From: an uncultured Lachnospiraceae bacterium
Lineage (GTDB): Bacteria > Bacillota > Clostridia > UBA1381
Reading direction: 5' to 3'
Assembly: GCA_964496015.1 (NCBI GenBank)
Contig: CAZBXN010000001.1
Location: 1-45,014 of the forward strand
Length of the DNA stretch: 45,014 bases
Positions 2,639 to 38,023 of this stretch are shown here, piece after piece. The stretch's first letter is position 1, and the number at the start of each line of letters is the position of its first letter. Made by a program: the position numbers and the translations under genes. The notes beneath the pieces were generated by a model. The model was not told the origin of the DNA. It saw only the letters and a list, made by a program, of their open reading frames with translations, and made no database searches.

Positions 2639-2833
2639 TTAAAATTTATAATCTATTCCACTTTGTTTCATAATAGCGTTTGCGGTATGACGCGATTTTA
2701 TTTTTCCGTCAACCGTAATATGACAATCGGTAACAGGACTGTACCAAATATCATGGTCACCTTTTCCACGTCTTACAAAATAGCAGCTATGCTGTTTTAA
2801 AATTTCTCTTACCTTCTTTTCATATTCTGCCAT
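2639..2833 (-). CDS. hicA: HicA-family toxin (mRNA interferase) of a type II toxin-antitoxin pair
   Basis: 64 aa. The ..RRGKGDHDIWYSP..KSRHTANAIMKQSGI.. pattern matches the HicA/YcfA family. Its ATG (2831-2833) overlaps the stop of the upstream small ORF by 1 nt (TAATG). Confidence 0.8.
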   Translation of the reverse strand: MAEYEKKVREILKQHSCYFVRRGKGDHDIWYSPVTDCHITVDGKIKSRHTANAIMKQSGIDYKF

Positions 2834-3051
2834 TACAAAGCAATCCTTTCGTGACGCGTTGATTTGAAATTCAGATTAAGCATTGGTGTTTGTTTCTTAT
2901 TTAAGTCAAGCAGCTCCGGCACCGCGAAACGCAAGCGTTCAATCATTGCGTCATACGAACCGGATTCAAGTACAAGTCCCGGAATATCATCACTTGTTGC
3001 AACCCAAACCTGAGCGTCATTATCCCAAGTTAAAAATATAGTATAATCCAT
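2833..3051 (-). CDS. hicB: HicB-like antitoxin (DUF1902-type small protein)
   Basis: 72 aa. The N-terminal MDYTIFLTWDNDAQVWVATSDDIPGLVLESGSYDAMIERL resembles the HicB/DUF1902 fold. It is translationally coupled to hicA. SD AGGAGGA lies upstream of the ATG at 3049-3051. Confidence 0.65.
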   Translation of the reverse strand: MDYTIFLTWDNDAQVWVATSDDIPGLVLESGSYDAMIERLRFAVPELLDLNKKQTPMLNLNFKSTRHERIAL

Positions 3052-3066
3052 AATTTCCTCCTGTTT

Positions 3067-3927
3067 TTACTTTATTTTCGGCAGTATTGCCACTGCATTT
3101 CTACCTACGTGAGTGCCGATAAGCGGTCCGAACTCGGTATACATTGTTATGCAGTCCTCGCCAAATTCCGATTTTAACAGCGCGCACGCTTTTTGACCGC
3201 GCTCTTCGTCAGAGTGAATAACGATAAATTCGGGATTTTCCGCGTCAAAATCGGGGTCCTCCTTGATTTTCTCAATCAGCTTTTCAAGCAGCTTTTTCTT
3301 GCCGCGCAATTTATCCATATTCTCGACAAGACCGTGTTCAATCGTCAAAATCGGCTTAATGTCAAGCATTGTTCCGACAAACGCTGCAGTTTTTGAAAGC
3401 CTGCCGCCCTTTTCAAGGTATTTGAGCGTATCAACAAGCAGATAACACCGCCATGACACTATATATTTTTTACAGTCTTCTATTATTTCATCAGCCGATT
3501 TGCCGCTTTCAGCCATTTGCGCGGCGTGAACGGCAGTTTGAGCAATATATCCCGAAAACTTCTGCGTATCGACAATGCGGAAATCGGCTGTCGGATTTTC
3601 CTCAAGAATTTCTTCGCGCACCAGATTTGCCGTCTGATACTGTCCGCTTGCCGTGCCAGACAGTGCAAAATAAATTACCGTTTTATGCTTTTTGCACTGC
3701 TCCGAGAAAAAGTCGAGCATATCGCCGTAAGGCGTCTGCGAGGTGGTAGGGAAGCCGTCAAAGGTTTCAAGCCTGTCGAAAAACTCCGCGTTCGTTATAG
3801 TAACGCCCTGAATAAACTGTTCCTCGCCGAAAAGGCTTAAAAACGGCAAAATGTCAATATCGTATTTCTCCGCGTCGGCGGGCGGTATATCCGCGCCGCT
3901 GTCAACTATAATTTTTATATCCGCCAT
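3067..3927 (-). CDS. DegV family fatty-acid-binding protein
   Basis: The ORF track gives 3067-3948 from a GTG. The ATG at 3925-3927 (MADIKIIVDSGADIP...) is preceded by AGAAAGGAA and avoids overlap with trmL. DegV signatures are present: IVDS.ADIP, GTHVG. Confidence 0.85.
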   Translation of the reverse strand: MADIKIIVDSGADIPPADAEKYDIDILPFLSLFGEEQFIQGVTITNAEFFDRLETFDGFPTTSQTPYGDMLDFFSEQCKKHKTVIYFALSGTASGQYQTANLVREEILEENPTADFRIVDTQKFSGYIAQTAVHAAQMAESGKSADEIIEDCKKYIVSWRCYLLVDTLKYLEKGGRLSKTAAFVGTMLDIKPILTIEHGLVENMDKLRGKKKLLEKLIEKIKEDPDFDAENPEFIVIHSDEERGQKACALLKSEFGEDCITMYTEFGPLIGTHVGRNAVAILPKIK

Positions 3928-5460: not shown

Positions 5461-6414
5461 ATGTTTGAAGTTCTTATTACCAGACCTATGGGCTGGATAA
5501 TCGAGCAAATTTACAGCTTGGTTTCAAATTACGGTCTTGCCATTATTCTGTTTACGATTATCATAAAGCTTATTCTGCTCCCGCTCAACGTGCGGTCGCA
5601 GAAGGCGATGAAAAAGCAGCAAAAAATTCAGCCGATTATGGCGGAGCTTCAGAAGAAGTACGCAAACGACCAGGAAAAGCTGCAAAGAGAAATGATGAAA
5701 ATCTATAAGGAGAACAACATCAGTATGACGGGCGGCTGTCTGCCGCTTCTGATACAGATGCCTATTCTTGTAGGTCTTTACAGGGTAATTCAAAGACCTA
5801 TCACCTATCTTGCAGGCGTGAGTATCACCGAATTGCAGGAGGGCGCGATGGCGGAGAAGATTATCATGCTCCGTGACGCGATGGCGGACAAAATAGGAAA
5901 TCTTGCGTCCGCAGGAGTTGATATGATTGCGAAAAATTCGCAGATACAGTTGTCCAAATGGGCTGAAATTATAAACGGTTCGTCAGACCCGTGGGCGATT
6001 AACTTTAATTTCTTTGGACTTGATTTGGCAAATACGCCGTCAGCGGCGTTTAATTATTTGTTCCGCGGCGATTTCTCAAACTGGGCGGCAATCGCATTGC
6101 TTATTATACCGATTTTAGCCGTTTTGGCGTCAATCGCTCAGATGAAAATATCGCAGGCGCAGACGGGACAGACAAATAACGACAATGCAAATCAGTCGGC
6201 GAAGATGATGAATATGATGATGCCGATTATGACGCTGTTCTTCACGGTAACGCTTCCGTCCGGACTCGGCATTTACTGGATAATCAGTTCATTGGTGCAG
6301 ATAATACAGCAGGTATTGTTAAATTATTATTTCGATAAGAAGGGGGAGGACGTAATTGTCACAATTCCAGAAAAAAAACAGCTCCACGGAGCAAAGAGCA
6401 AAAAGCGTAGATGA
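5461..6414 (+). CDS. yidC: membrane protein insertase YidC/SpoIIIJ family
   Basis: 317 aa. Motifs ..QKKMQ.. P.M.E.Q.KY.. GCLP.L.QMPI and a basic C-terminal tail KSKKRR. SD GAAAGGAAGG upstream. Confidence 0.9.
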   Translation: MFEVLITRPMGWIIEQIYSLVSNYGLAIILFTIIIKLILLPLNVRSQKAMKKQQKIQPIMAELQKKYANDQEKLQREMMKIYKENNISMTGGCLPLLIQMPILVGLYRVIQRPITYLAGVSITELQEGAMAEKIIMLRDAMADKIGNLASAGVDMIAKNSQIQLSKWAEIINGSSDPWAINFNFFGLDLANTPSAAFNYLFRGDFSNWAAIALLIIPILAVLASIAQMKISQAQTGQTNNDNANQSAKMMNMMMPIMTLFFTVTLPSGLGIYWIISSLVQIIQQVLLNYYFDKKGEDVIVTIPEKKQLHGAKSKKRR

Positions 6415-17370: not shown

Positions 17371-17445
17371 GGAGCTAACGAGCGGAGTCGAACCGCCGAC
17401 CTCTTCATTACCAATGAAGTGCTCTGCCTACTGAGCTACGTCAGC
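17370..17445 (-). tRNA. tRNA-Thr (anticodon GGU), CCA encoded
   Basis: The reverse complement is GCTGACGTAGCTCAGTAGGCAGAGCACTTCATTGGTAATGAAGAGGTCGGCGGTTCGACTCCGCTCGTTAGCTCCA. It folds with a 7 bp acceptor stem, D arm GCTC/GAGC, anticodon stem CTTCA/TGAAG with loop TTGGTAA, and a T arm with TTCGACT loop. Confidence 0.93.
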
Positions 17446-26225: not shown

Positions 26226-27091
26226 ACGGCATAATAGTTATAGATAAGCCCGAGGGTAAAACCTCGCATGACATGGTGTATTTTATGCGCCGTGTGACGG
26301 GCATTAAAAAAATCGGTCATACGGGCACGCTTGACCCTATGGCGACGGGCGTTTTGCCCGTCTGTATCGGCAGCGCGACAAAGGCTGCCGATATGCTGAC
26401 TGCGTCCGATAAGCAGTATACGGCGGAGCTGATTTTAGGCAAAACGACCGATACGCAGGACGCGTCGGGAACGGTTTTAACGGAAAGTGAAGTTAATTTA
26501 GCCGATACGGAAATTGAAAACGCCGTAAGTTCCTTTGTCGGCGAAATTGAGCAAATCCCGCCGATGTATTCGGCAATAAAGCAAAACGGGAAAAAGCTTT
26601 ACGAGCTTGCAAGAAAGGGCATTGAGGTCGAGAGAAAGCCGAGAAAAGTGAAAATCCACGGAATAAATATACTCGGCATAGACGGAAAAAGCGTTAAAAT
26701 AGATGTTTCCTGCTCGAAAGGCACGTATATAAGAACATTGTGCGCGGATATTGGTGAAAAGCTCGGTACAGGCGCGTATATGAACACTTTAAGACGCACG
26801 CAGGCAGGGATTTTTACAATAGAGAACGCATATACGGCAGAAGATATTCAGAAAATGGCAGAAGCGGGGACATTAAACGAAGCGCTTATTCCGATTGACG
26901 AACTGTTTTTTGAATATCCGAAAATCGTGCTTAACGAAAAGCAGACGAGGAGCATTGTAAACGGTATAAGAATGACATATCGGGGACAGGCAGGACAGTG
27001 CTACAGACTGTATGACGAACAGGGGAAATTCCTCTGTATATCAAGATGCACAGACGAAAAGCTTGTGCTTCAAAAATCATTCTGGAGCTAA
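26222..27091 (+). CDS. truB: tRNA pseudouridine(55) synthase
   Basis: The ATG at 26222 overlaps the nrnA TGA (ATGA). MNGIIVIDKPEGKTSHD.V.......KIGHTGTLDP.ATGVLPVC.G.ATK is the TruB core. Confidence 0.9.
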   Translation: MNGIIVIDKPEGKTSHDMVYFMRRVTGIKKIGHTGTLDPMATGVLPVCIGSATKAADMLTASDKQYTAELILGKTTDTQDASGTVLTESEVNLADTEIENAVSSFVGEIEQIPPMYSAIKQNGKKLYELARKGIEVERKPRKVKIHGINILGIDGKSVKIDVSCSKGTYIRTLCADIGEKLGTGAYMNTLRRTQAGIFTIENAYTAEDIQKMAEAGTLNEALIPIDELFFEYPKIVLNEKQTRSIVNGIRMTYRGQAGQCYRLYDEQGKFLCISRCTDEKLVLQKSFWS

Positions 27092-27126
27092 AATAATGGG
27101 GAAAATGAAAGGGAGGCGGCATAAAT

Positions 27127-28032
27127 TTGGATATAATTCACGCGGAAAAAATCGTTGATTATGACGGTACGGTTGCCGCGCTCGGTAATTTTGACGGACT
27201 GCACATCGCGCATAAGGCGATTATAAAAAGCGGCATTGAATACGCGAAGCAAAATAATTTGAAATCGGGCGTTATGCTGTTTGAGGAAAACTCAAAGGAA
27301 GTTACGGGCACAAAGCATATTGAAATCATAACGCCGAATAAAATGAAGCTGGAGCTTTTGGAAAAAGCAAATACGGATTTTGTGTATATCAGGAAGTTTA
27401 CGCGCGAGTTTATGCAGGTATCAGCCGAAGATTTTGTAAAGCTGCTGGTTAAGAATTTAAAGGTCAGGGCTGTCTGCGTGGGGTACGATTACAGCTTTGG
27501 ATATAAGGCGCAGGGCGATGTTGAGCTTCTTAAAACACTCGGCAAAAAATACGGCTTTCGCGTGTTTGTCACTGACGCGGTGAAAATTGACGGCGAGATT
27601 GTGTCGAGCACGAGAATAAGAGAGATGATAAAAGCGGGCGAAATTGAAAAGGCAAATAATTTCCTCGGCAGAAGCTTCTGCCTTGAGGGAAAGGTGGTAA
27701 AAGGACTGCAAAACGGCAGAAAAATGGGTATTCCGACCGCAAATACCGAATATGACAGCAATGTGGTTTTGCCGAAGGAGGGCGTTTATTTCGGGCTTAC
27801 ATACGTCGGTGAAAAACCGTTCAAAAGCGTAATAAATATCGGCAGAAACCCGACTTTTAACGCCGAAAAATTAACAGTGGAAAGCCATATCCTTGATTTT
27901 AACGGGGATATTTACGATAAAAACATACGCGTGTCGTTTGAAAAACGGATACGTGATGTTATTAAATTTAACAGTATAGACGAGCTTAAAAATCAGATAA
28001 ACGCGGATATTGAGAAGGTAAAGGAGTTTTAA
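27127..28032 (+). CDS. ribF: bifunctional riboflavin kinase / FMN adenylyltransferase
   Basis: 301 aa. TTG start with GGGAGG 9 nt upstream. ..ALGNFDG.H.AH..I.. and C-terminal ..GRK.G.PTAN.. / ..E.H.LDF.GD.Y.. motifs. Confidence 0.9.
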   Translation: MDIIHAEKIVDYDGTVAALGNFDGLHIAHKAIIKSGIEYAKQNNLKSGVMLFEENSKEVTGTKHIEIITPNKMKLELLEKANTDFVYIRKFTREFMQVSAEDFVKLLVKNLKVRAVCVGYDYSFGYKAQGDVELLKTLGKKYGFRVFVTDAVKIDGEIVSSTRIREMIKAGEIEKANNFLGRSFCLEGKVVKGLQNGRKMGIPTANTEYDSNVVLPKEGVYFGLTYVGEKPFKSVINIGRNPTFNAEKLTVESHILDFNGDIYDKNIRVSFEKRIRDVIKFNSIDELKNQINADIEKVKEF

Positions 28033-28033
28033 A

Positions 28034-29404
28034 ATGTTTACAAGCATAATTTTAGCGGCGGGAATGGGCACGAGAATGAAATCGGATATGCCGAAGGTTC
28101 TTCATAAGGTATGCGGAAAACCGCTCTGTAAGTGGGTTATTGACGCGTCGAAAACTGCGGGCGCGGACAAAACGGTAACGGTAGTCGGTCACGGCGCGGA
28201 TATGGTAAAGGAGCAGCTTGGGTCTGTTACGGAATACGCGCTTCAATCGGAGCAGAAGGGAACGGGTCACGCCGTTATGCAGGCGGTTGATTTTATCAGG
28301 GACACTAAAGGCAGCGTTGTGATTTTAAACGGCGATACGCCGCTTATAACTGCCGAAACGATTGAAAAAGCTGTTGAATACAGCCGCGAAAACGGCGAAC
28401 AGGCGACGGTTATTACGGCGATTTTGCCCGACGCGACGGGTTACGGCAGAATTGTCCGTGACGAAAACGGCGGCGTTTTGAAGATTGTCGAGCAAAAGGA
28501 CGCGTCAGACGAGGAAAAGAAAATAAACGAGGTAAATTCGGGAATGTATGTTTTTGACGCGCAGTCGCTTGTTTACGCGCTTGAAAAAATTACGCCGAAT
28601 AACGCGCAGGGCGAGTATTATCTTACCGATACGCTTGAGATTTTATTGAAAGCGGGTAAAAAAGTCGGCGCGTATGCGATTGAGGATAACGACGAAATCC
28701 GCGGAATAAACGACCGTGTTCAGCTTAGCGAAGCGGAAAATATTATGCGAAAGAAAATCAACGAAAAACATATGAAAAACGGCGTAACCATGCGTATTCC
28801 CGAAAGCGTTATAATTGAAGACGGCGTGGAAATCGGACGCGATACCGAGATTTGCCCGAACGTCACGATAAAATCGGGCACGAAAATCGGCTCGCACTGC
28901 GTTATCGGACAGGGTAGCGTGCTGGATAATGCGGTTATTCATGACGGCGTTGATATTTTGAGCTCGGTTATATTAAATTCGGAAATTGACGAAAATACAA
29001 CGGTCGGACCGTTTGCGTATGTGCGTCCGAATTGCAAGGTCGGAAAGAATGTAAAGGTAGGCGACTTTGTTGAGCTTAAAAATTCAAATATTGACGACGG
29101 CACGAAAATCTCACATCTTACATATATCGGCGACAGCGACGTCGGCAAGCGCGTTAATTTCGGCTGCGGCACGGTTACATGCAATTACGACGGCAAGAAT
29201 AAATACAGAAGTACGATAGGCGACGATTGCTTTGTCGGCTGTAATACGAATTTTGTGTCCCCGATAAATGTCGGAAACGGCGCGTACATAGCCGCAGGCT
29301 CGACGATTACCGAAGATATTCCCGATAAAGCCTTGTCAATCGCGAGAGCGCGGCAGGTAAACAAAGAAAAATGGCAGGACAAAAGGGACACTAAAAAGGA
29401 ATAG
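28034..29404 (+). CDS. glmU: bifunctional UDP-N-acetylglucosamine pyrophosphorylase / glucosamine-1-phosphate N-acetyltransferase
   Basis: 456 aa. ILAAGMGTRMKSD.PKVLH, ..Q.EQ.GTGHAV.. , and C-terminal left-handed beta-helix hexapeptide repeats. Confidence 0.93.
   Translation: MFTSIILAAGMGTRMKSDMPKVLHKVCGKPLCKWVIDASKTAGADKTVTVVGHGADMVKEQLGSVTEYALQSEQKGTGHAVMQAVDFIRDTKGSVVILNGDTPLITAETIEKAVEYSRENGEQATVITAILPDATGYGRIVRDENGGVLKIVEQKDASDEEKKINEVNSGMYVFDAQSLVYALEKITPNNAQGEYYLTDTLEILLKAGKKVGAYAIEDNDEIRGINDRVQLSEAENIMRKKINEKHMKNGVTMRIPESVIIEDGVEIGRDTEICPNVTIKSGTKIGSHCVIGQGSVLDNAVIHDGVDILSSVILNSEIDENTTVGPFAYVRPNCKVGKNVKVGDFVELKNSNIDDGTKISHLTYIGDSDVGKRVNFGCGTVTCNYDGKNKYRSTIGDDCFVGCNTNFVSPINVGNGAYIAAGSTITEDIPDKALSIARARQVNKEKWQDKRDTKKE
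28299..28309 (+). repeat. GGGACACTAAA motif copy 1 (in glmU)
   Basis: Exact 11-mer, read as aGG GAC ACT AAA (RDTK). Confidence 0.9.
29385..29395 (+). repeat. GGGACACTAAA motif copy 2 (glmU 3' end)
   Basis: Exact 11-mer, read as aGG GAC ACT AAA (RDTK), 6 nt before the glmU stop codon. Confidence 0.9.
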
Positions 29405-29413
29405 AAAATATAG

Positions 29414-29437
29414 AAGCTGTTGTCATGGCAACAGCTT
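29414..29437 (+). terminator. hairpin between glmU and pth (weak terminator or stabiliser)
   Basis: AAGCTGTTG (29414-29422) / CAACAGCTT (29429-29437), a 9 bp stem with a 6 nt loop. Only a short T run follows. Confidence 0.3.
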
Positions 29438-29472
29438 TTAGTAACAGGGATAAATATTGCGGAGGAAATTAC

Positions 29473-30039
29473 ATGTATTTGATTGTTGGGCTGGGAAATC
29501 CGGGGCGTCAATATGAAATGACGCGTCATAATATCGGATTTCATACAATAGATTATATCGCAGACCAAAAAAAGGTTAAAATAAATAAGTTAAAGCATAA
29601 GGCGCTTTACGGGGAAACGGAAATATGCGGCGAAAAGGTTTATCTTATAAAGCCGCAGACCTATATGAATTTAAGCGGCGACAGCGTTATTGAATTTGCA
29701 AAATTTTATAAAATTCCGCCCGAAAATATTATCGTGATAAGCGACGACATATCGCTTGACACGGGACGCATACGCGTGCGCGAAAAGGGCAGCGCGGGCG
29801 GTCATAACGGGCTCAAATCCATAATTTATCAGCTCGGAAGCGATAATTTCCCGCGCGTAAAAATGGGCGTGGGTTCGCCTGCTCATGCGGATTACGACCT
29901 TGCCGATTATGTCCTCGGACGCTTTTCAAGGGACGAAATCCCCGTTATGGAGGACGCGATTATTCGTGCGTCAAAAGCCGTTGAGGAAATAATTAAAAAC
30001 GGGGCGCAGTCGGCAATGAACAAATATAACGCAAAGTAA
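29473..30039 (+). CDS. pth: peptidyl-tRNA hydrolase
   Basis: The ATG at 29473 (MYLIVGLGNPG..Y..TRHN.GF) is preceded by GGAGG. 188 aa. ..GSAGGHNGLKSI.. Confidence 0.9.
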   Translation: MYLIVGLGNPGRQYEMTRHNIGFHTIDYIADQKKVKINKLKHKALYGETEICGEKVYLIKPQTYMNLSGDSVIEFAKFYKIPPENIIVISDDISLDTGRIRVREKGSAGGHNGLKSIIYQLGSDNFPRVKMGVGSPAHADYDLADYVLGRFSRDEIPVMEDAIIRASKAVEEIIKNGAQSAMNKYNAK

Positions 30040-30081
30040 AAGACTGAATAAAATCGCCCATCTCACTAAAACCAATCAAGA

Positions 30082-30092
30082 GGGACACTAAA
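30082..30092 (+). repeat. GGGACACTAAA motif copy 3 (non-coding, abuts the mfd ATG)
   Basis: Exact 11-mer immediately 5' of the mfd start codon at 30093. It forms the SD-like GAGGG plus spacer. Confidence 0.9.
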
Positions 30093-33000
30093 ATGGATTT
30101 TTCCGATATGTTAAAAGACTATCCGCCGTATAAGGGGACAGTAAAAAATCTGAATAATACGCCCATATCTGTCGCGGGAGTTGTCGAATCGGCGCAGGGA
30201 CAGCTTATTTATGCGCTCGGAAAAGAAAACGCCTCGCGCGCCGTTGTTATAACGTACAGCGATATGGAGGCGCGCGCCATGTATTCGGATTTGTCGCTTT
30301 ATACGGATAACGCGCTTTATTTCCCGTCAAAGGAGTATGTTTTTTACAATATTGAAACGACGGGGCACAGGAACGAGCATGACCGTTTGGCAGTTCTCGA
30401 TAAAATCACGGACAGCGATAACTGCATAGTTGTGACGAGCATTGACGCTGTTTTGCAATACACTGCAAAACGCGAGGAATTCAGTAACAGCGTTATTGAT
30501 TTTGAGCTTGGAAAGCGGTTTGATTTGGAACAGCTTACCGAGCGGCTTGTTGAAATAGGCTACAGCCGCGAGGATATGGTCGAGGGCGTGGGACAATTCG
30601 CGGTGCGCGGCGGTATTCTTGATATTTTTTCGCCCAACGCCGAAAATCCAGTCCGAATTGAATTTTTTGATGACGAAACCGACTCGATACGTTCGTTTGA
30701 CGTTTATACTCAGCGTTCGCTTGACAAGCTCAGTTCCGCACGGATAATACCGACGGTTGAGGCTATTTTGTCAATGGACAAAAAGCGCGAAATTGTCGCG
30801 TTTCTTGAGGACGAAGTCAGAAAGGCAAAGCGCAGGAAAGCCGATATGACGGAGTTTATAAACACTGTAAACGCCGATATTGAAAGCTTTAACGAGCGTC
30901 ATTATTTTCCGTCAATCGACAAATATGTTTCCATGATTTACGGCACGGTTCCTACGGTGCTTGATTATTTTGACGAAAACGACCTTGTTTTTGTGATTGA
31001 CCCCAAACGTATTGCCGAGCGCGGCAAAACCTTTGAATGGGAAAAAGGGGAAATTATAACCGAGCTTAAAAACAAGGGCGTTTTGGGGACACAAAAATCT
31101 ATCAGGGTGTTTTTGCACTACGCCGAGGCGATAGAAAAAATGACGCGCAAAAAAGTTGTGTCGATAGACGTTTTGTCCCATACGCGCACAGATTTTAATT
31201 ACAGGCATCTTGAAACCTTTATTACGAAAACGACGATTTCATTTCACGGCAAGATTGATTATTTATACGAGGATTTAAAGTCGTGGCAGGAGAAAAATTA
31301 TACTGTAGTAATTTTGGCGTCCACGCGCGGACGCGCGGAAAATCTTGCGGGTGTTTTGCGGGAACGCGGAATAAAGGCGAGATTTATAAACGGGGACGCT
31401 AAAATTGATGGCGCAGGGGACACTAAATTCAAACAGGGTGAAACCGTAATTGTCAGGGGAAATCTCAATAAGGGCTTTGAATATCCCGACATTAAATTTG
31501 TCCTTGTATCGGACAGGGAAATTTTTGAGAGCAAGAAAAGCCGTCAGAAGAGAAAGGCGGATAATACAAACAGGATAAAATCGTACACCGATATAAGCGT
31601 CGGCGATTATGTTGTTCATCAGACGCACGGAATAGGTAAATATATGGGGACACAAAAAGTGACGGTCAACGGAATTACAAAAGACTATCTGAAAATTCAG
31701 TACCGCGGAACGGACTCTTTATATGTCCCCATTGACCAGCTTAATATGCTGTATAAATATGTCGGCAATACGGAAAAGGAGCTCAGGTTAAATAAGCTTG
31801 GCGGCGCGGAATGGAATAAAACGAAACAGAGAGTTAAAAAATCAACCGAGGATTTGGCGCGTCAGCTTGTCGCGCTGTATGCCGCGCGCGGAAAAATCAA
31901 GGGTCACGCGTTCAGCCCCGATACGCCGTGGCAGCGCGACTTCGAGGATACGTTTGAATACACCGAAACCGAAGACCAGCTTCGTTCGATTGAGGAAGTC
32001 AAGCAGGATATGGAAAGCGAAAAGCCTATGGACAGACTTCTTTGCGGCGATGTGGGCTTCGGCAAAACGGAGGTTGCGCTCCGCGCCGCGTTTAAGGCGG
32101 TCAATGACTCCAAACAGGTCGCGTACCTTTGTCCGACGACAATCCTCGCAATGCAGCATTACGAAACGTTTTTAAAACGTATGGAAAATTTCCCCGTAAA
32201 AGTTGAAATGCTTTCGCGTTTTCGGACGCAGACGCAGCAGAAAAAAATACTTAAACAGCTAAAAGACGGAGAGATTGATGTTATAATCGGAACGCACAGA
32301 ATCTTGTCAAAGGATTTGGAATTTAAAGATTTGGGGCTTTTAATCGTGGACGAGGAACAGCGGTTCGGCGTCGCGCATAAGGAGCGGCTCAAGGAACTTA
32401 AAAAGAATGTAGACGTACTCACCATGACGGCGACTCCGATACCGAGAACGCTGCATCTTGCAATGACGAGCATACGCGACATGAGCGTGCTGACCGAGCC
32501 GCCCGAAAACCGCTATCCTGTTGAAACCTATGTTCTGGAGGATAACCCTGCCGTGATTTTGGACGCGATACGCAATGAATTGTCGCGCGGAGGTCAGGTT
32601 TTCTACCTCTACAACCGTGTTCAGGGCATTTACCGAAAAGCGGAGTGGATAAAATCGCAGTTCCCCGACATAAATGTTGCGGTCGGTCACGGCAAAATGA
32701 AGGAGGACGAACTTGAGGACATCATGTATGACATGGTAAACGGCAAAACCGACGTCCTTGTCTGCACTACCATTATTGAAACGGGGCTTGATATTCCGAA
32801 TGCGAACACGATTATAATTGAAAACGCCGACAAAATGGGATTGGCGCAGCTTTACCAGCTCCGCGGGCGCGTGGGACGTTCAAACCGCATAGCGTATGCG
32901 TATCTGACGTACCGCAGGGACAGCATTTTGTCGGACGTCGCGTCAAAAAGGCTTCGCGCGGTAAAGGAATTTACCGAGTTTGGCTCGGGCTTTAAAATTG

Positions 33001-33623
33001 CCATGCGCGACCTTGAAATCCGCGGCGCGGGCAATATTTTGGGCGCGGAGCAGCACGGGCACATTGACACGGTCGGCTATGACATGTACTGCCAGATATT
33101 GAAAGAAAGCGTCAGCGAGGCGCAGGGCATTGAAACGAAGCCCGAGATTAACGTGTCGGTTGATATTGAAATTGACGCATATCTGCCCGAGGACTATATC
33201 GGAAACCACAATCAGCGCATTGATATGTATAAGCGTATCGCGGCGATTGAAACGGAGGAGGATAAATTTGAGGTCGAGGATGAGCTTATTGACCGCTTCG
33301 GCGACATTCCAAAGCCCGTGCAGAATATTATAAATGTTGCGTCGCTGAAATATCCCGCGCGAGAGGCGGGAATTTACGAAATCGCGCAGCACGGGAATGT
33401 TTTGCAGCTCAAATTTAACGAAAATTATGTGTCGGCGCAGCTTATAATGGGGCTTGACAAGAAGTTCCCGAGAAGAATTAAGCTTCTCGCGACCGAAAAG
33501 CCGACGGTGAATATCGCGCTGAAAGGCGAGGAAAAGAATATCACGGAATTTATTGACGGCGTGATTGCCACGGTAAAGGAATTGGAGGAAAAAACCGAAG
33601 AAATCGATATTTTGATAAAATAA
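30093..33623 (+). CDS. mfd: transcription-repair coupling factor
   Basis: 1176 aa. CarD-like ..GDYVVHQTHGIGKY.. , helicase motifs GDVGFGKTEVA, DEEQRFGV, TATPIPRT, QLRGRVGRS, and a TRCF C-terminal domain. Confidence 0.95.
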   Translation: MDFSDMLKDYPPYKGTVKNLNNTPISVAGVVESAQGQLIYALGKENASRAVVITYSDMEARAMYSDLSLYTDNALYFPSKEYVFYNIETTGHRNEHDRLAVLDKITDSDNCIVVTSIDAVLQYTAKREEFSNSVIDFELGKRFDLEQLTERLVEIGYSREDMVEGVGQFAVRGGILDIFSPNAENPVRIEFFDDETDSIRSFDVYTQRSLDKLSSARIIPTVEAILSMDKKREIVAFLEDEVRKAKRRKADMTEFINTVNADIESFNERHYFPSIDKYVSMIYGTVPTVLDYFDENDLVFVIDPKRIAERGKTFEWEKGEIITELKNKGVLGTQKSIRVFLHYAEAIEKMTRKKVVSIDVLSHTRTDFNYRHLETFITKTTISFHGKIDYLYEDLKSWQEKNYTVVILASTRGRAENLAGVLRERGIKARFINGDAKIDGAGDTKFKQGETVIVRGNLNKGFEYPDIKFVLVSDREIFESKKSRQKRKADNTNRIKSYTDISVGDYVVHQTHGIGKYMGTQKVTVNGITKDYLKIQYRGTDSLYVPIDQLNMLYKYVGNTEKELRLNKLGGAEWNKTKQRVKKSTEDLARQLVALYAARGKIKGHAFSPDTPWQRDFEDTFEYTETEDQLRSIEEVKQDMESEKPMDRLLCGDVGFGKTEVALRAAFKAVNDSKQVAYLCPTTILAMQHYETFLKRMENFPVKVEMLSRFRTQTQQKKILKQLKDGEIDVIIGTHRILSKDLEFKDLGLLIVDEEQRFGVAHKERLKELKKNVDVLTMTATPIPRTLHLAMTSIRDMSVLTEPPENRYPVETYVLEDNPAVILDAIRNELSRGGQVFYLYNRVQGIYRKAEWIKSQFPDINVAVGHGKMKEDELEDIMYDMVNGKTDVLVCTTIIETGLDIPNANTIIIENADKMGLAQLYQLRGRVGRSNRIAYAYLTYRRDSILSDVASKRLRAVKEFTEFGSGFKIAMRDLEIRGAGNILGAEQHGHIDTVGYDMYCQILKESVSEAQGIETKPEINVSVDIEIDAYLPEDYIGNHNQRIDMYKRIAAIETEEDKFEVEDELIDRFGDIPKPVQNIINVASLKYPAREAGIYEIAQHGNVLQLKFNENYVSAQLIMGLDKKFPRRIKLLATEKPTVNIALKGEEKNITEFIDGVIATVKELEEKTEEIDILIK
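31417..31427 (+). repeat. GGGACACTAAA motif copy 4 (in mfd)
   Basis: Exact 11-mer, read as gGG GAC ACT AAA (GDTK). A one-mismatch copy GGGACGCTAAA lies 24 nt upstream (31393-31403). Confidence 0.9.
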
Positions 33624-33747
33624 CCCTTACGTTAGCAGAGTGGGGGTTATTTTACTTTTGCAGTAAAAACTATAAGAATCATACCAACTAAGAAAATCAA
33701 TCTCAAAGCTTTATATATGAAAAAGATTTTACCGCGCTTTAAAATTC

Positions 33748-33816
33748 AAAAAATCGGAAAAATTTTCAAAAAAATTTAAAAAACTACTATTATTTTATAA
33801 TAATTTATGGTAGAAT
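33748..33816 (+). promoter_or_regulatory. phased A-tracts plus extended -10 element upstream of zapA
   Basis: A-runs begin at 33748, 33758, 33768 and 33778 (10 bp phasing). They are followed by TG-N-TAGAAT (33808-33816). The -35 is poor (TATTAT). Confidence 0.35.
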
Positions 33817-33841
33817 AATATTAAAATTAAAAGGAAACGAA

Positions 33842-34342
33842 GTGGTGGATATGACAAAAACGGCAGTTACGATAAATTCGCGCCGATATGACGTCGTGGC
33901 GGAGGAGAGTGCGGAATATATTGAAAAGCTTGCGGCTCATATAAACGAGAAGGTTGAGCTTGTGCTGAGAGGCGGAAAAAACATAATCGGCGAGCGTCCG
34001 ATTGTTCTTGCCGCGCTCAATATTTGCGACGAATATTTTAAGCTTCGCGACGACCGCCGGGCAAGCTCGGCAAACAGCGAGAACAGACGCCTGAAAGCTG
34101 AAATAAAAAAGCTGCGCGCGGAACTTAACGCGCAAAATGAAGACAATCAGATTTCTATTGACGAAACGGAAATAAAGGCGGAAAAAACCGACGCGGCAAA
34201 TAAGCTTGACAAGGCAAGCGCACAGATAAAATTCCTTGAGGGACAAGTTACGCTCCTGGAGGGCAAGCTGAAAAAAATGGAAGAGGACTACGCGGCGCGC
34301 GAACAGGAAATTCTCGATATGATAGACAAGGACACGAGATGA
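33842..34342 (+). CDS. zapA: cell division protein ZapA with an extended C-terminal coiled-coil
   Basis: 166 aa. ..VTINSRRYDVVAEESAEYIEKLAAHINEKV... ..LAALNI.DEY.K is the ZapA core. The C-terminal half is heptad-rich (KLRAELNAQ.., LEGQVTLLEGKLKKMEEDY). The start is GTG 33842 or ATG 33851. Confidence 0.75.
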   Translation: MVDMTKTAVTINSRRYDVVAEESAEYIEKLAAHINEKVELVLRGGKNIIGERPIVLAALNICDEYFKLRDDRRASSANSENRRLKAEIKKLRAELNAQNEDNQISIDETEIKAEKTDAANKLDKASAQIKFLEGQVTLLEGKLKKMEEDYAAREQEILDMIDKDTR

Positions 34343-36417
34343 TGGAATTACTTGCTCCTGCGGGGAATGCGGCGTCGCTTCACGCCGCCGTGCAATCGGG
34401 CGCGGACGCGGTCTATATCGGCGGCCCGAAATTTAACGCGAGAAAGTCCGCCGATAATTTCACGATTGGGGACATAAAAAAATACAGCGATTACTGTCAT
34501 TTGTACGGCGTTGACGTGCATGTCGCGTTTAACACGCTGATTAAGGAAAAAGAGCTTCCGTATATTGCGGAATACGCCCATGAGTTAAACGACGCGGGCG
34601 TTGACGCGCTGATAATTCAGGACTTGGGCGCGGCGGAGATTATAAAAAAAGCCGTTCCCGATATGACGCTTCATGCGAGCACGCAGATGACGGTTACAAG
34701 TCTTGACGGCGTGAGATACCTGGAGGACATGGGATTTTCGCGCGTGGTTCTTGCGCGCGAGCTTTCAAAAAACGAGATTGAATATATCTGCGAAAATGCG
34801 GAAGCCGAAATTGAGGTTTTCGTTCACGGTGCGATTTGCATGTGCTATTCGGGACAATGCCTGATGTCAAGCATTTTCGGCGGCAGAAGCGGAAACCGCG
34901 GCTGCTGCGCGCAGCCCTGCCGTTTGCCGTATGATTTGCTTGAAAACGGCAAAAAGACGGACAGCGGCTGTATTTTAAGCCCGAAGGACATGGCTCTTAT
35001 AAACGAGCTTCAAAGCCTGCGCGGCATAGGCGTATCGTCGCTTAAAATCGAGGGCAGGCTCAAAAGCCCCGAATATGTAAGCGCGGTCGTCGGGATTTAC
35101 AGAAAATATCTTGATAATACAAAGCCTGCGACAAAAGAGGACATGACGGAGCTTAAAAACGCGTTTTCAAGAAACGGCTTTACTGACGGATATTTTACGC
35201 AAAATCTCGGAAGCGGTATGATGAGCGGCGAAAGTCCGTCAAAAATCAGCTCGTTTTCCAACGCGGCTTTAAAAAGAGCCGATATAAATTCAAACATCAG
35301 AAAAATCCCGATAAATATTTCGGGGACACTAAAACAAGACGCTCCGCTTGAAGTAACGCTGCGTGCGAGGGACACTAAAAGCGGGGACACAAAAACAGGT
35401 CATGCGGCAGGAACGCTAAAATCCGAAAAGGCGATAAACAGACCGCTTGACGAAAAACGCCTTACAGAACAGCTCGGGAAGCTCGGCGATACGCCGTTTG
35501 AGGCGGTTGATACAAAAATCAGTCTTGACAAAGGAATAACAATTCCCATAAAAGAAATAAATGCGGTAAGACGCGCGGCGGCAGGGGAGCTTACACGGGA
35601 ATTAAGCAGACGTCCGATAGGGCGCACATGCGAGGTGAAAGCCGAAAGCGTTAAGCGCGAAAAGCCGCCGATAATTTTGACTGCGGAGGTAAGCACGGCT
35701 GAACAGGCAAAAGCGGCAGTCAGAAACGGAATAAAAATAATTTACGCGCCGCAAAAAATCATTGGGGACATAAAAAAATCAACGGATTTGAGCGGGGACA
35801 CTAAACTTACAACAAAGACCTCGGAAATATTCCGAAAGGAAGACGTAAAAACCGATGGCGTTCTTGTATCGTCGCCCGCGGCGGTAAGATATTACGGCGG
35901 CAAAGAAATTTACGGCGATTTCAGACTTAATATATTTAATTCAAAAACGGCAAATCATTTAGGGACACTAAAAATGATAACTCTGTCGCCCGAATTGAAT
36001 TTAAGCGAAATACGCGATTTAACCGAAAATACTTTATCGGCGGTTGAAATAATCGGTTACGGCAGAATACCGCTGATGATTATGAAAAACTGTCCCGTTA
36101 AGGCGGCAGGAAAATGTCAGAAGGGCAAAAATATTTATACCCTCCGTGACCGAAAGAATGAGGAGCTTCCGATTGTGTGCAATGAGGACTGTACCGCGAA
36201 AATCCTTAATTCAAAGCCGATTTATACGGCTGATAAGCTTTACGACATAAAAAAATTGAAAATAAATGCGATAAGATTGATATTTACTGTTGAAAATTTT
36301 ACACAATGTGATAAAATAATCAGTGTATATAAATCCGCGCTGTACGGTGAGGACTATTCTCACACGTTGGAGGAAAACTCTTTTACGCGCGGGCATTTGT
36401 ACAGAGGAGTGGAATAA
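34339..36417 (+). CDS. peptidase U32 family protein (long form with C-terminal extension)
   Basis: 692 aa. MELLAPAGN...L.AA...GADAVY.GG..FNAR, ..E.FVHGA.CM.YSGQC.MS... GRS.NRG.CAQPCR, ..SLKIEGR.KSPEYV.. The ATG overlaps the zapA stop (ATGA). Confidence 0.85.
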   Translation: MMELLAPAGNAASLHAAVQSGADAVYIGGPKFNARKSADNFTIGDIKKYSDYCHLYGVDVHVAFNTLIKEKELPYIAEYAHELNDAGVDALIIQDLGAAEIIKKAVPDMTLHASTQMTVTSLDGVRYLEDMGFSRVVLARELSKNEIEYICENAEAEIEVFVHGAICMCYSGQCLMSSIFGGRSGNRGCCAQPCRLPYDLLENGKKTDSGCILSPKDMALINELQSLRGIGVSSLKIEGRLKSPEYVSAVVGIYRKYLDNTKPATKEDMTELKNAFSRNGFTDGYFTQNLGSGMMSGESPSKISSFSNAALKRADINSNIRKIPINISGTLKQDAPLEVTLRARDTKSGDTKTGHAAGTLKSEKAINRPLDEKRLTEQLGKLGDTPFEAVDTKISLDKGITIPIKEINAVRRAAAGELTRELSRRPIGRTCEVKAESVKREKPPIILTAEVSTAEQAKAAVRNGIKIIYAPQKIIGDIKKSTDLSGDTKLTTKTSEIFRKEDVKTDGVLVSSPAAVRYYGGKEIYGDFRLNIFNSKTANHLGTLKMITLSPELNLSEIRDLTENTLSAVEIIGYGRIPLMIMKNCPVKAAGKCQKGKNIYTLRDRKNEELPIVCNEDCTAKILNSKPIYTADKLYDIKKLKINAIRLIFTVENFTQCDKIISVYKSALYGEDYSHTLEENSFTRGHLYRGVE
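35323..35333 (+). repeat. GGGACACTAAA motif copy 5 (in the U32 gene)
   Basis: Exact 11-mer, read in the other frame as GGG ACA CTA AAa (GTLK). Confidence 0.9.
35369..35398 (+). repeat. GGGACACTAAA motif copy 6 plus an adjacent variant, forming a 2 x 15 nt tandem repeat (in the U32 gene)
   Basis: GGGACACTAAAAGCG followed by GGGACACAAAAACAG (12/15 identical). Encodes DTKSG-DTKTG. Confidence 0.85.
35795..35805 (+). repeat. GGGACACTAAA motif copy 7 (in the U32 gene)
   Basis: Exact 11-mer, read as gGG GAC ACT AAA (GDTK). Confidence 0.9.
35962..35972 (+). repeat. GGGACACTAAA motif copy 8 (in the U32 gene, just 5' of an in-frame ATG)
   Basis: Exact 11-mer, read as GGG ACA CTA AAa (GTLK), followed by the in-frame ATG at 35974-35976. 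Confidence 0.9.
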
Positions 36418-37013
36418 TGGCTGAGTTTATTTTAGCCTCCGCGTCGCCCAGACGCAGCGAGCTTTTAAATAATATAGGAGTAAAATTTGAGGTTGTCGTT
36501 TCCGACGCGGACGAGGGCGGCTTGTCAAAGGACGCGCCCGCGCATATATATGTGCAGGAGCTTGCGCTCTTAAAAGCGGCGGCTTCGGCAAAAAAACGGC
36601 TTAAAAGAAAAAATGCGGTCATAATAGCCGCCGACACGATTGTGACGCTTGACGGGAAAATTCTCGGAAAGCCGAAGGACGCGGAGGACGCGGCGGAAAT
36701 GCTCAGAAGCCTTTCGGGACGCTGTCATGAGGTTTTAACGGGCTATTGCGTAATGAGGATAAAGGACGGCTTCACCGTCTGCAATGCGGTAAAAACCGAG
36801 GTCAGCTTTAAGGCATTGGACGAGGACAAAATATCAGCCTATATAAAAACGGGCGAGCCGCTTGACAAGGCGGGCGCATACGGAATACAGGGCTTGGGCG
36901 CGCTCCTGATTGACGGCATAAACGGCGATTATTTTAACGTAGTGGGACTGCCCGTATCGGCGCTGTCAGATACGTTAAGGAATGAATTTGGAATAGATTT
37001 ATTGGAGGAGTAA
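36417..37013 (+). CDS. maf: Maf-like nucleoside triphosphate pyrophosphatase (septum formation protein)
   Basis: 198 aa. [20 protein letters not shown], ..ADT.V..DG.ILGKP.. , ..KAGAYGIQG.. The start shares one base with the U32 stop. Confidence 0.9.
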
Positions 37014-37018
37014 GAAAC

Positions 37019-38023
37019 ATGGGAGTATTTTCAAAGGACGTAGGAATAGATTTGGGAACGGCGAACACGCTTGTTTACGTAAAAGGAAAGGGGATAGTGG
37101 TTCGCGAACCGTCCGTTGTCGCGATAGACAAATATGTAGGCAAGGTATTGGCAGTCGGCGAGGAAGCGAACGAAATGATAGGCAGAACGCCTGAAAACAT
37201 AGTGGCGGTGCGCCCGATGAAGGACGGCGTTATCGCTGATTTTGATATTACGCAGGCGATGATTAAGCAGTTTATAAAGGAAGCGAATATCAGCAACGTG
37301 TTTAAGCCGAGAATTATCGTATGTATTCCCTCGGGAATAACAGAGGTTGAAAGACGCGCGGTTGAGGAAGCGGTTATTCATGCGGGCGCGCGCGACGTCG
37401 TGCTTATCGAAGAACCCATGGCGGCGGCAATCGGCGCGGGACTTCCCGTTGACGAAGCGACGGGCAGCATGGTGGTCGATATTGGCGGCGGCACAACGGA
37501 GGTTGCCGTTATATCGCTCGGCGGAATTGTCGCGTCAAAGTCGATACGAATTGCGGGCGACGCTCTTGACAGCGCGATTATGAATTATCTGAAAAAGGAA
37601 CACGGAATAAATATCGGCGACAAAATGGCTGAGGAAATTAAAGTATCGGTAGGCTCGGCGTATGAAATGCCCAAAGAGGGAACGTTTGAGGTCAGGGGAC
37701 GCGACGTTTCAACGGGACTTCCGAAAACTATTGTGATAAGCGAGGCGGAAACAAGAGTCGCGATAAGCGAAAACATAAACGAGATGATTGAGGCGATTAA
37801 ATACACGCTTGAACACACGCCCCCCGAACTTGCGGCGGATATTATGGAGCGCGGCATTACGCTTACGGGCGGCGGCGCGCTTATCAGAGGTCTTGACAAG
37901 CTCATAACGCACGTTACGAAAATCCCGACGCACGTAGCGGAATATCCGCTTGACTGCGTTGCGGTCGGAACGGGAAAATCACTTGACAGAATAAAACAGC
38001 TTATAGCGGCAAATAAAAATTGA
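37019..38023 (+). CDS. mreB: rod shape-determining protein MreB
   Basis: 334 aa. [26 protein letters not shown].. , ..[18 protein letters not shown].. actin-fold motifs. Confidence 0.93.

Follow-up and report, generated by a model that had tools for sequence, protein, structure and literature searches.

A sense-strand word of 11 to 12 bases in a U32 peptidase gene, its upstream neighbours and the prophages of Hominilimicola-related gut Clostridia

The 45,014-bp contig examined here over its whole length, which we call the window, comes from an uncultured Lachnospiraceae bacterium and carries, in and beside its truB, glmU, mfd and U32/DUF3656 peptidase genes, repeated copies of an 11-base word, GGGACACTAAA. 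Codon shuffles and cross-species conservation strongly support the view that the nucleotides of this word themselves, and not the peptides that they encode, are under selection. Sequence comparisons further indicate that the cluster in the window is a composite: because the copies in the U32 gene are clade-wide and those in truB, glmU and mfd are lineage-specific, a conserved property of the U32 gene appears to have been joined by younger copies upstream. The clade consists of Hominilimicola and its relatives and includes the organism of the window, a member of the gut Clostridia whose relatives are metagenome-assembled genomes labelled Clostridia, Oscillospiraceae, Lachnospiraceae and Candidatus Ornithomonoglobus.

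We call a copy exact when all 11 bases match and one-mismatch when 10 of the 11 do. A scan of the window recovered eight exact copies (listed below), all on the plus strand, which is the sense strand of the genes concerned; these are the same eight positions reported in an initial annotation made by eye, and, as it stated, the window as a whole contains no exact reverse complement and, beyond 28.3-36.0 kb, no exact copy, 37 of its 45 kb being free of copies. The six one-mismatch copies listed in that annotation are likewise all present on the plus strand, but three of them (30135, 31086 and 31647) encode conserved peptides of Mfd, GT[VQ]K, which distant orthologues spell with similar codons, and are probably coincidental. 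The list was also incomplete, having overlooked a one-mismatch copy on the minus strand at 29251; this match arises from a conserved GlmU peptide read in antisense, and at that site another species (L030) has an exact match, also antisense.

With up to one mismatch allowed, the window holds 15 matches, compared with 0.49 expected from dinucleotide shuffles of its sequence, and eight positions drawn at random would fall within 7.7 kb or less of the 45 kb with a probability of 2.5e-5. The word is the sole 10- to 11-mer to occur more than five times in the window, and its internal 6- to 8-mers (e.g., ACACTA, CACTAA) are nearly absent outside the full word. Because the preceding base is A or G in 14 of 14 window copies, the real unit is suggested to be one of 12 bases, RGGGACACTAAA. 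A longer hidden repeat was considered and rejected, since the flanks are otherwise unrelated and the sub-words scarce.

A conspecific strain (L001), found by an exact Mfd match and represented by an independent assembly with 98.4% nucleotide identity, has the same copies, and other species hold copies in frame, so that an assembly or adapter artefact, against which the initial annotation had advised a check, is excluded. The copies of the window and the U32 gene are as follows, where L002 is a sister species whose Mfd is 91% identical and the remaining labels refer to U32 orthologues described below:

26867..26877, plus strand: one-mismatch copy in truB, GGGACATTAAA, encoding GTLN; exact in L001, the difference being synonymous (CTA vs. 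TTA)
28299..28309, plus strand: exact copy in glmU, encoding RDTK in a variable four-residue stretch; no insertion or deletion (indel), orthologues having K[DAES][AT][EKQ]
29385..29395, plus strand: exact copy in glmU, encoding RDTK in the C-terminal tail, with 6 nt between its end and the stop codon; orthologues have a tail shorter by 3-4 codons
30082..30092, plus strand: exact non-coding copy touching the mfd ATG and filling the Shine-Dalgarno and spacer positions
31393..31403, plus strand: one-mismatch copy in mfd, GGGACGCTAAA, encoding GDAK in the Mfd linker; the homologous L002 site is exact (AGG GAC ACT AAA)
31417..31427, plus strand: exact copy in mfd, encoding GDTK in the hypervariable, indel-rich linker, within an 8-codon segment missing from L002
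34339..36417, plus strand: U32/DUF3656 gene, Pfam PF01136 and PF12392, with RlhA-like architecture
35323..35333, plus strand: exact copy in U32, GGG ACA CTA AA(A), encoding GTLK; the most deeply conserved site (amino acid 329)
35369..35379, plus strand: exact copy in U32, AGG GAC ACT AAA, encoding RDTK in a variable loop; exact in L115, the sister L114 having GAC GAT GTC AAA
35384..35394, plus strand: one-mismatch copy in U32, GGGACACAAAA, encoding GDTK; exact in L115 and L116, the same one-mismatch form in L114
35410..35420, plus strand: decayed copy in U32 with two mismatches, GGAACGCTAAA, encoding GTLK; the homologous site is exact in L115, L116, L238 and L241
35795..35805, plus strand: exact copy in U32, GGG GAC ACT AAA, encoding GDTK; exact in L114 and L116, with unrelated residues in other species
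35962..35972, plus strand: exact copy in U32, encoding GTLK followed by an in-frame ATG; present in this species only

If the word were a by-product of the encoded peptides and of codon usage, synonymous reshuffling of codons would be expected to restore it at a comparable frequency. In 2000 such trials within 40 genes, however, the number of coding copies averaged 0.07 and never exceeded 2, against the 7 observed. As originally counted, the coding copies use two frames, five reading xGG GAC ACT AAA and two GGG ACA CTA AAA, and the codons that had been noticed as uncommon are indeed so, CTA accounting for 1.3% of leucine and ACT for 8.5% of threonine codons; two further codons of the word are also rare, GGG (8.5% of glycine) and AGG (10% of arginine). 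Within the window the word spells three of three RDTK, two of three GDTK and two of four GTLK peptides. The earlier argument for a cause at the DNA or RNA level is thereby borne out, both by these shuffles and by the conservation of the word in the U32 gene.

For the latter comparison we sampled the U32 genes of seven species of the clade, including Hominilimicola, with 64-100% protein identity to that of the window:

Window: 100% identity, 4 exact copies
L114: 81% protein identity, 2 exact copies
L115: 74% protein identity, 4 exact copies
L116/117: 72% protein identity, 4 exact copies
L238/239, an abundant gut species (P0019 cluster of 5522 member sequences): 66%, 4 exact copies
L241: 65% protein identity, 3 exact copies
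L240, a Hominilimicola sp.: 64% protein identity, 3 exact copies

The seven genes thus hold 24 exact copies, two to four per gene and 24 of 24 in sense orientation, and the flanks of six related U32 loci (10-20 kb each, about 87 kb in total) hold a single one; the U32 gene of Ca. Ornithomonoglobus (L242, 59% identity) has none. At the amino acid 329 site (35323) all 11 bases are identical in 7 of 7 species, even where the lysine has become asparagine (CTA AAT), and since only 13% of the invariant degenerate codons of U32 are identical in all seven, this site stands apart: the gene has two independent stretches so conserved (11 identical bases in seven species), of which it is one. Exactness over seven species at such protein divergence requires purifying selection. 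The remaining sites turn over between species (alignment columns 230, 356, 362, 371, 491, 510 and 566). At 35962, for example, the sister species has GAG ACA TTA AAA, and the copy differs from it by one non-synonymous change and one synonymous change, from TTA to the rare CTA.

The word spells 24 of the 28 GTLK, GTLN, GDTK and RDTK peptides of the U32 genes, and conserved GTLK and RDTK peptides of other genes (e.g., infB, xylulokinase) are not spelled by it. A model in which U32 merely offers cheap sites, in the form of an existing GTLK, is weakened by this failure of peptides elsewhere to be converted. The other highly conserved stretch of the gene, ATATTTACTGTTGAAAA at 36280-36296, encodes the peptide IFTVEN about 120 nt before the U32 stop codon, upstream of maf, and could be an internal regulatory element.

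The copies in truB, glmU and mfd have a different history. Among 80 related mfd loci, clustered copies at homologous sites occur only in L002, with isolated and apparently unrelated copies in a few others. Codon alignments show that glmU 28299 and truB 26867 arose without any indel relative to the orthologues, by 4-5 substitutions in variable residues, and among the sites in truB, glmU and mfd indels coincide only with the copies in the glmU tail and the mfd linker. The insertions of 4-5 codons that the initial annotation thought might accompany the motif are therefore missing at these two sites, as they are at U32 35323 and 35962. The copy at the mfd start codon (30082) is kept in L002 despite an unrelated upstream flank, and other orthologues have an ordinary GGAG-type ribosome-binding site in its place. 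From these alignments, the truB, glmU and mfd copies appear to be young and lineage-specific, produced mainly by substitutions in variable loops, tails and linkers. The idea that copies spread because mfd adjoins U32 was rejected, since L002 has the mfd copies and no U32 gene beside them.

Two side observations concern mfd. A partial copy, CACTAAAA, at 30064-30071 precedes the exact copy at the mfd ATG by 18 nt and contains the window's only CACTAA outside the full word. Related mfd loci of other species have strand-specific 11- to 13-mers of their own: GGCGGAATTTGCG about six times in L060 and L074, and GGCGGAATATG, GAAAAACCCGCC and CGGTTTCGGCG six times each in L077, L016 and L076, respectively. 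These may be coding repeats or other lineage-specific words.

A metagenome scan extended the distribution to at least 120 loci, most of which are five recurrent loci attributed to one species; non-gut matches (marine, freshwater, soil and some of unidentified source, including tandem satellites and iterons) were counted as background. The contig of locus (c) below encodes a DnaK that matches H. fabiformis exactly, and the proteins of loci (b) and (e) carry no species name; the gene names at Hominilimicola loci are our reading of the translated sequences rather than the result of family searches.

Locus (a): TAA-word-AGGA-word-ATG upstream of a cysD-like gene, the word junction itself creating a putative Shine-Dalgarno sequence, AAAGGAGGG
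Locus (b): word-ATG-AAT-A-word, a dipeptidase-like gene thereby beginning with MNRDTK
Locus (c): 3' of a hisB-like gene, a pair of sense copies with the complement immediately after them (S-S-A)
Locus (d): between tsaD-like and aroB-like genes
Locus (e): RDTK tail of a Fur-like protein, then a hairpin shared with a convergent pdxK-like gene

In non-coding DNA two placements are preferred. The first is at start codons: a copy lies at offset 0 or -1 from the ATG of at least eight independent genes of host and phage, among them mfd (in the window and in L002), the Hominilimicola cysD-like and dipeptidase-like genes, a copZ-like gene (L196) and the phage genes for the major capsid protein and a tail chaperone, and the chance of such abutment for one copy is roughly estimated at 0.08. 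In these copies the upstream purines together with GGG form a putative Shine-Dalgarno sequence, with GAGG- or GGAGG-like cores 7-9 nt from the ATG. The ACACTAAA part of the word has no Shine-Dalgarno role, and most copies do not stand beside a start, others lying immediately past a stop codon or in the tails, linkers and loops of proteins. Start-region copies are predicted to be unstructured. The second placement is in hairpins. Sense-sense-antisense modules occur 3' of the hisB-like and Fur-like genes, 3' of a gene resembling ZIP-family zinc transporters ('zupT', so named from its sequence) and in L065, with predicted folding energies of -24 to -28 kcal/mol (z from -5 to -8). Hairpin modules are seen in L065, L122, L140, L230 and L082-85. 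At a copA-like/copZ-like junction (L196, 4719-4768) three in-frame copies, GDTK-I-RDTK-TATN-GDTK, make up the whole of the junction with no stop between, in what is apparently a fusion linker built from the word.

Orientation follows the gene. Among the matches listed, about 65 solitary or tandem copies are in sense orientation, as are all of about 15 independent non-coding sites, and antisense copies are hairpin partners with one lone exception (L141, 1001). In L230, a sense-sense-antisense module with a U-run follows the minus-strand ZIP-family gene, and about 900 nt away a plus-strand copy lies in the 5' untranslated region of a small plus-strand gene, each copy being sense to its own gene. 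Many of the 10-14 kb Hominilimicola loci have, among the matches listed, no copies beyond the pair used to find them.

The word is also found in phages. Scans of viral contigs gave 27 loci with word pairs and four with inverted pairs, and the gut group among them matches, at 97.9% identity, the Monoglobales phage CHVD 5762 (PV036456, Ca. Heliusvirales), a temperate myovirus that encodes an integrase and a module of sheath, tube and XkdN-like chaperone genes. In 50 kb of its genome there are three exact and two one-mismatch sense copies, all within the structural-gene (late) block; the one other near-match, a one-mismatch copy at 5679, is on the opposite strand outside that block. Two copies encode the C-terminal tail (RDTKITRRDTK) of a 68-residue protein just before the head-tail adaptor gene, and two flank a small hairpin with a U-run at the junction of the tail tube and tail chaperone genes, the second touching the ATG. 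In diverged phages the pair at this junction is kept with unrelated spacers, and copies also touch the ATG of the major capsid gene and of other genes.

Several features of viral contigs stand beside these observations. PV036456 (L113) encodes three DNA methyltransferases (2746-3864, 34319-36157 and 36150-37433), one of them fused to a ParB N-terminal domain. In one phage group (L222, at 884-930, and L090/L107), 17-nt tandem units, GGGACACTAAAATGAAA, form overlapping mini open reading frames, MKGTLK-stop and MKGTLNK-stop, whose stop codons overlap the next ATG and which lead into a real gene. In the IMG/VR contigs L082-L085 (125 and 155 kb, 31% GC) the word and its complement form the stems of several terminator-like hairpins with A/T tracts.

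We tentatively favour a reading that seems to us possible, if short of probable, in which RGGGACACTAAA is a clade-specific cis-acting word that a trans-acting factor reads in sense orientation, either on the mRNA or, while transcription proceeds, on the non-template DNA. Candidates for this reader include an RNA-binding protein, a small RNA or 3' untranslated region complementary to the word (with free UUUAGUGUCCC) and an accessory factor of RNA polymerase. Such a reader would adjust translation initiation when bound at a start region, and termination or 3'-end formation when bound to the 5' arm of a hairpin formed by word and anti-word. The U32 mRNA, with its several copies, would then be the target under strongest control or else a titrating hub, and the truB, glmU and mfd copies would be recent additions where the proteins tolerate the word. 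Among the causes that the initial annotation had put forward, a target of a small RNA or RNA-binding protein and a protein-binding array remain the best candidates, the others being disfavoured or mostly rejected.

By analogy, the mechanism most resembles the targets of RNA-binding or antitermination regulators. The targets of TRAP, PyrR and CsrA-type proteins (including the CsrB-like titrating RNAs) are, like the word, confined to the sense strand, often in tandem and present at many sites per RNA, and they too lie across a start codon or Shine-Dalgarno sequence or supply the 5' arm of a terminator hairpin; their motifs, however, comprise 3-5 degenerate bases, whereas the word is an exact 11- to 12-mer, mostly intragenic in the window and shared with the late operons of prophages. 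The operon polarity suppressor (ops) element of RfaH-type NusG paralogues offers a second likeness, being nearly exact over about 12 bases, active only when on the non-template (sense) strand, present in long operons and mobile elements and tied to ribosome recruitment at nearby starts. As with ops, the element that we find has about 12 bases, lies within transcription units and is confined to the sense strand. But ops occurs once or twice in operon leaders, a location that fits poorly with the many word copies that are intragenic or at operon ends, whereas the word occurs two to four times per gene, at operon ends and in hairpin arms, and its sequence is unrelated to GGCGGTAGnnTG.

Several considerations weigh against this reading of the word as an RNA- or non-template-strand signal. 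That it is read at the RNA level is suggested by orientation and position alone, and exactness over 11-12 bases would be unusual for the targets of bacterial RNA-binding proteins or small RNAs, which are normally degenerate. No common function unites the genes that bear the word (sulfate assimilation, histidine, shikimate, copper, Fur-like, mfd, glmU, truB), and the copies in loops, tails and linkers would fit equally well with a word whose presence anywhere is what matters. Because RDTK and GTLK are hydrophilic and the antisense peptides FSVP and LVS hydrophobic, the intragenic sense bias could partly reflect protein tolerance. The genes are mostly co-oriented, and one clear locus only (L230) argues against a replication-strand bias. 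Finally, the lone antisense copy in L141, encoding FSVP, lies 66 nt from a sense copy (935, GTLK); both are within one 417-residue gene, cobyric-acid-synthase-like by sequence only, and the two could pair within the mRNA.

A wider proposal, which we regard as rather unlikely, is that the word is the address of a hitherto unrecognised regulatory system with a dedicated reader, restricted to the Hominilimicola-related clade and coupling host operons to the late operons of prophages. Its reader would be an RNA-binding or RNA-polymerase-associated protein, or else anti-word RNAs released from the hairpin modules; the rlhA-like U32 mRNA, with two to four copies, would serve as central target or titrating sponge, and either the phages would have adopted the code of the host or the host that of its phages.

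The strongest rival, in our judgement unlikely, holds that the copies form an array of double-stranded DNA sites bound by a protein specific to the clade (e.g., a chromosome organiser, nucleoid protein or transcription factor), which prophages would also use and for which U32 would be the main loading or titration locus, comparable to parS, RefZ motifs or datA in coding DNA. A homotypic cluster that persists in U32 while its individual sites turn over, tandem pairs with short and variable spacers, the length and exactness of the word, and hairpins of which both arms are exact copies would all be expected of such an array, and ParB, Noc and RefZ offer known examples of DNA sites conserved within genes. 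However, the word is not palindromic, yet its solitary and tandem copies are sense with a single exception, including those in unconstrained non-coding DNA; the preference for start codons is left unexplained, and no candidate gene for a binder is linked to the sites.

It is less likely still, and quite improbable, that the word is a polar signal for a DNA-processing machine (Chi for AddAB, FtsK-orienting polar sequences (KOPS) and SpoIIIE recognition sequences (SRS) for FtsK/SpoIIIE, DNA uptake or phage packaging) that spreads wherever proteins tolerate it. The word is lineage-specific and common to host and phage, it lies on a single strand in co-oriented genes, and its over-representation, about 800-fold, is of the order seen for uptake sequences. 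Like the DNA uptake sequences (DUS) of Neisseria and uptake signal sequences (USS) of Haemophilus and other Pasteurellaceae, which are exact over 9-12 bases, hugely over-represented, lineage-specific and placed with preferred frames in tolerant regions of proteins, it occurs in inverted-pair terminators and at junctions, and its coding copies lie in loops, tails and linkers. DUS and USS, however, occur about once per kb genome-wide in both orientations, whereas the word is sparse, concentrated in one gene and sense; uptake sequences form an orientation-neutral class, and the non-coding sites listed here are all sense. Gram-positive bacteria are not known to take up DNA in a sequence-specific manner. 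Chi, KOPS and SRS are likewise asymmetric, strand-biased and specific to a host lineage, with Chi also present in the phages of its host, but they have 5-8 bases, extend over the whole chromosome and have no tie to start codons or to one gene; the word is longer than any known Chi or KOPS. Nor do we find their even density (one per few kb to about 13 kb): two to four copies in the 2-kb U32 gene contrast with about one exact copy in 87 kb of its flanks, and many Hominilimicola loci of 10-14 kb hold only the pair that found them. At L230, moreover, copies on both strands within 1 kb track the local gene rather than the replication strand, albeit at a single locus with genes elsewhere mostly co-oriented, and the conserved GTLK and RDTK peptides outside U32 remain unconverted. 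An uptake- or Chi-like role, as once suggested for the cluster, is disfavoured by the uneven density and by this orientation.

A selfish or mutational copy-paste process, in which in-frame insertion, duplication, template switching or a mini mobile element scatters a functionless unit of 11-15 nt, is very improbable. It would account for indels and tandem layouts at the mfd linker, the glmU tail, U32 35369/35384, the copA-copZ linker of L196 and the 17-nt units of L222. But glmU 28299, truB 26867 and U32 35962 arose by point substitution with no indel, there are no target-site duplications and no conserved flanks, decayed copies are few, and the amino acid 329 site is exact over seven species at 64-100% protein identity. 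The suggestion that the copies are footprints of short in-frame insertions is mostly rejected, indels being confined to the copies in the glmU tail and mfd linker. Interspersed repeats of known classes were rejected as well: repetitive extragenic palindromes (REP), bacterial interspersed mosaic elements (BIME) and miniature inverted-repeat transposable elements (MITE) are imperfect palindromes of about 35 bp or more or have terminal inverted repeats, with conserved flanks, whereas the word has 11-12 bases, is not self-complementary and has unrelated flanks.

A coincidence of peptides (GTLK, [GR]DTK) with local codon preference deserves virtually no credence and can be regarded as refuted, since, for all that GTLK at U32 amino acid 329 and GT at 358 are conserved in the protein and three one-mismatch mfd copies fall on conserved GT[VQ]K peptides, the word draws on the rarest codons, exceeds the shuffles (7 vs. 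0.07), appears with the same bases in two reading frames and in non-coding DNA, and is kept where K became N.

One further known class, the promoters of single-subunit phage RNA polymerases, has the cores GTGACACTATAG (SP6), CTCACTAAAG (T3) and GCACACTATAG (K11). The SP6 core matches the word at 9 of 11 bases, and phage promoters are also strand-specific and located upstream of phage genes, but the word lacks the conserved -17 to -12 positions and, unlike promoters, occurs within host coding genes. No RNA polymerase is annotated in CHVD 5762, and none was found by Pfam in eight of its proteins (among them the large unnamed ones, the presumed tape measure apart), among which a family A DNA polymerase, methylases and an SNF2 helicase were recognised; because this phage is without such an enzyme, the promoter explanation was rejected for the gut phages. 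It may apply to marine and freshwater phages with iterons. In the non-gut phage contigs L087, L097 and L109 the word lies within 20- to 21-bp iterons (GGGACACTAAACTGACGCAA), and similar iterons occur in the uncharacterised marine or metagenome contigs L142, L147 and L150 (GGGACACTAAACGTACGCAAA in L142 and L150); L109 also encodes a large terminase and an 808-residue portal-like protein, both recognised from sequence only. These iterons resemble promoters of SP6/T3/K11 type or origin repeats, and a relation to the gut word is improbable. On the features examined, the word appears to fall outside the Chi, KOPS, DUS/USS, REP and phage-promoter classes.

Other searches of the window and the literature gave little. 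A promoter and terminator scan of 25-38 kb yielded no prediction coinciding with copies, and known RNA families in the window amount to one tRNA; no rRNA occurs in any of the loci retrieved. The gene for this tRNA (17373-17445, minus strand) lies in a low-GC (36-39%) stretch at 17-19 kb that divides a left part of mixed gene orientation from a long run of plus-strand genes. A full-text search for the word and its complement returned only papers that are unrelated at the level of titles and abstracts; the Heliusvirales paper mentions no motif, and titles and abstracts on Hominilimicola contain nothing relevant.

Selected words that are exact over 11-12 bases are rare in coding DNA, and the known ones (uptake sequences, Chi, KOPS, ops, parS) have each revealed a dedicated machine. 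What first appeared to be a local cluster in the window is, on this evidence, a conserved property of one gene together with a recent spread, and it leaves a concrete and testable question, namely what reads RGGGACACUAAA. As a practical matter, the word can be used as a metagenome marker of the clade and its phages, which aids host assignment. Because it is shared by common human-gut Clostridia (Hominilimicola) and by widespread Heliusvirales prophages, it could expose a regulatory link between host and phage in organisms that have barely been studied.

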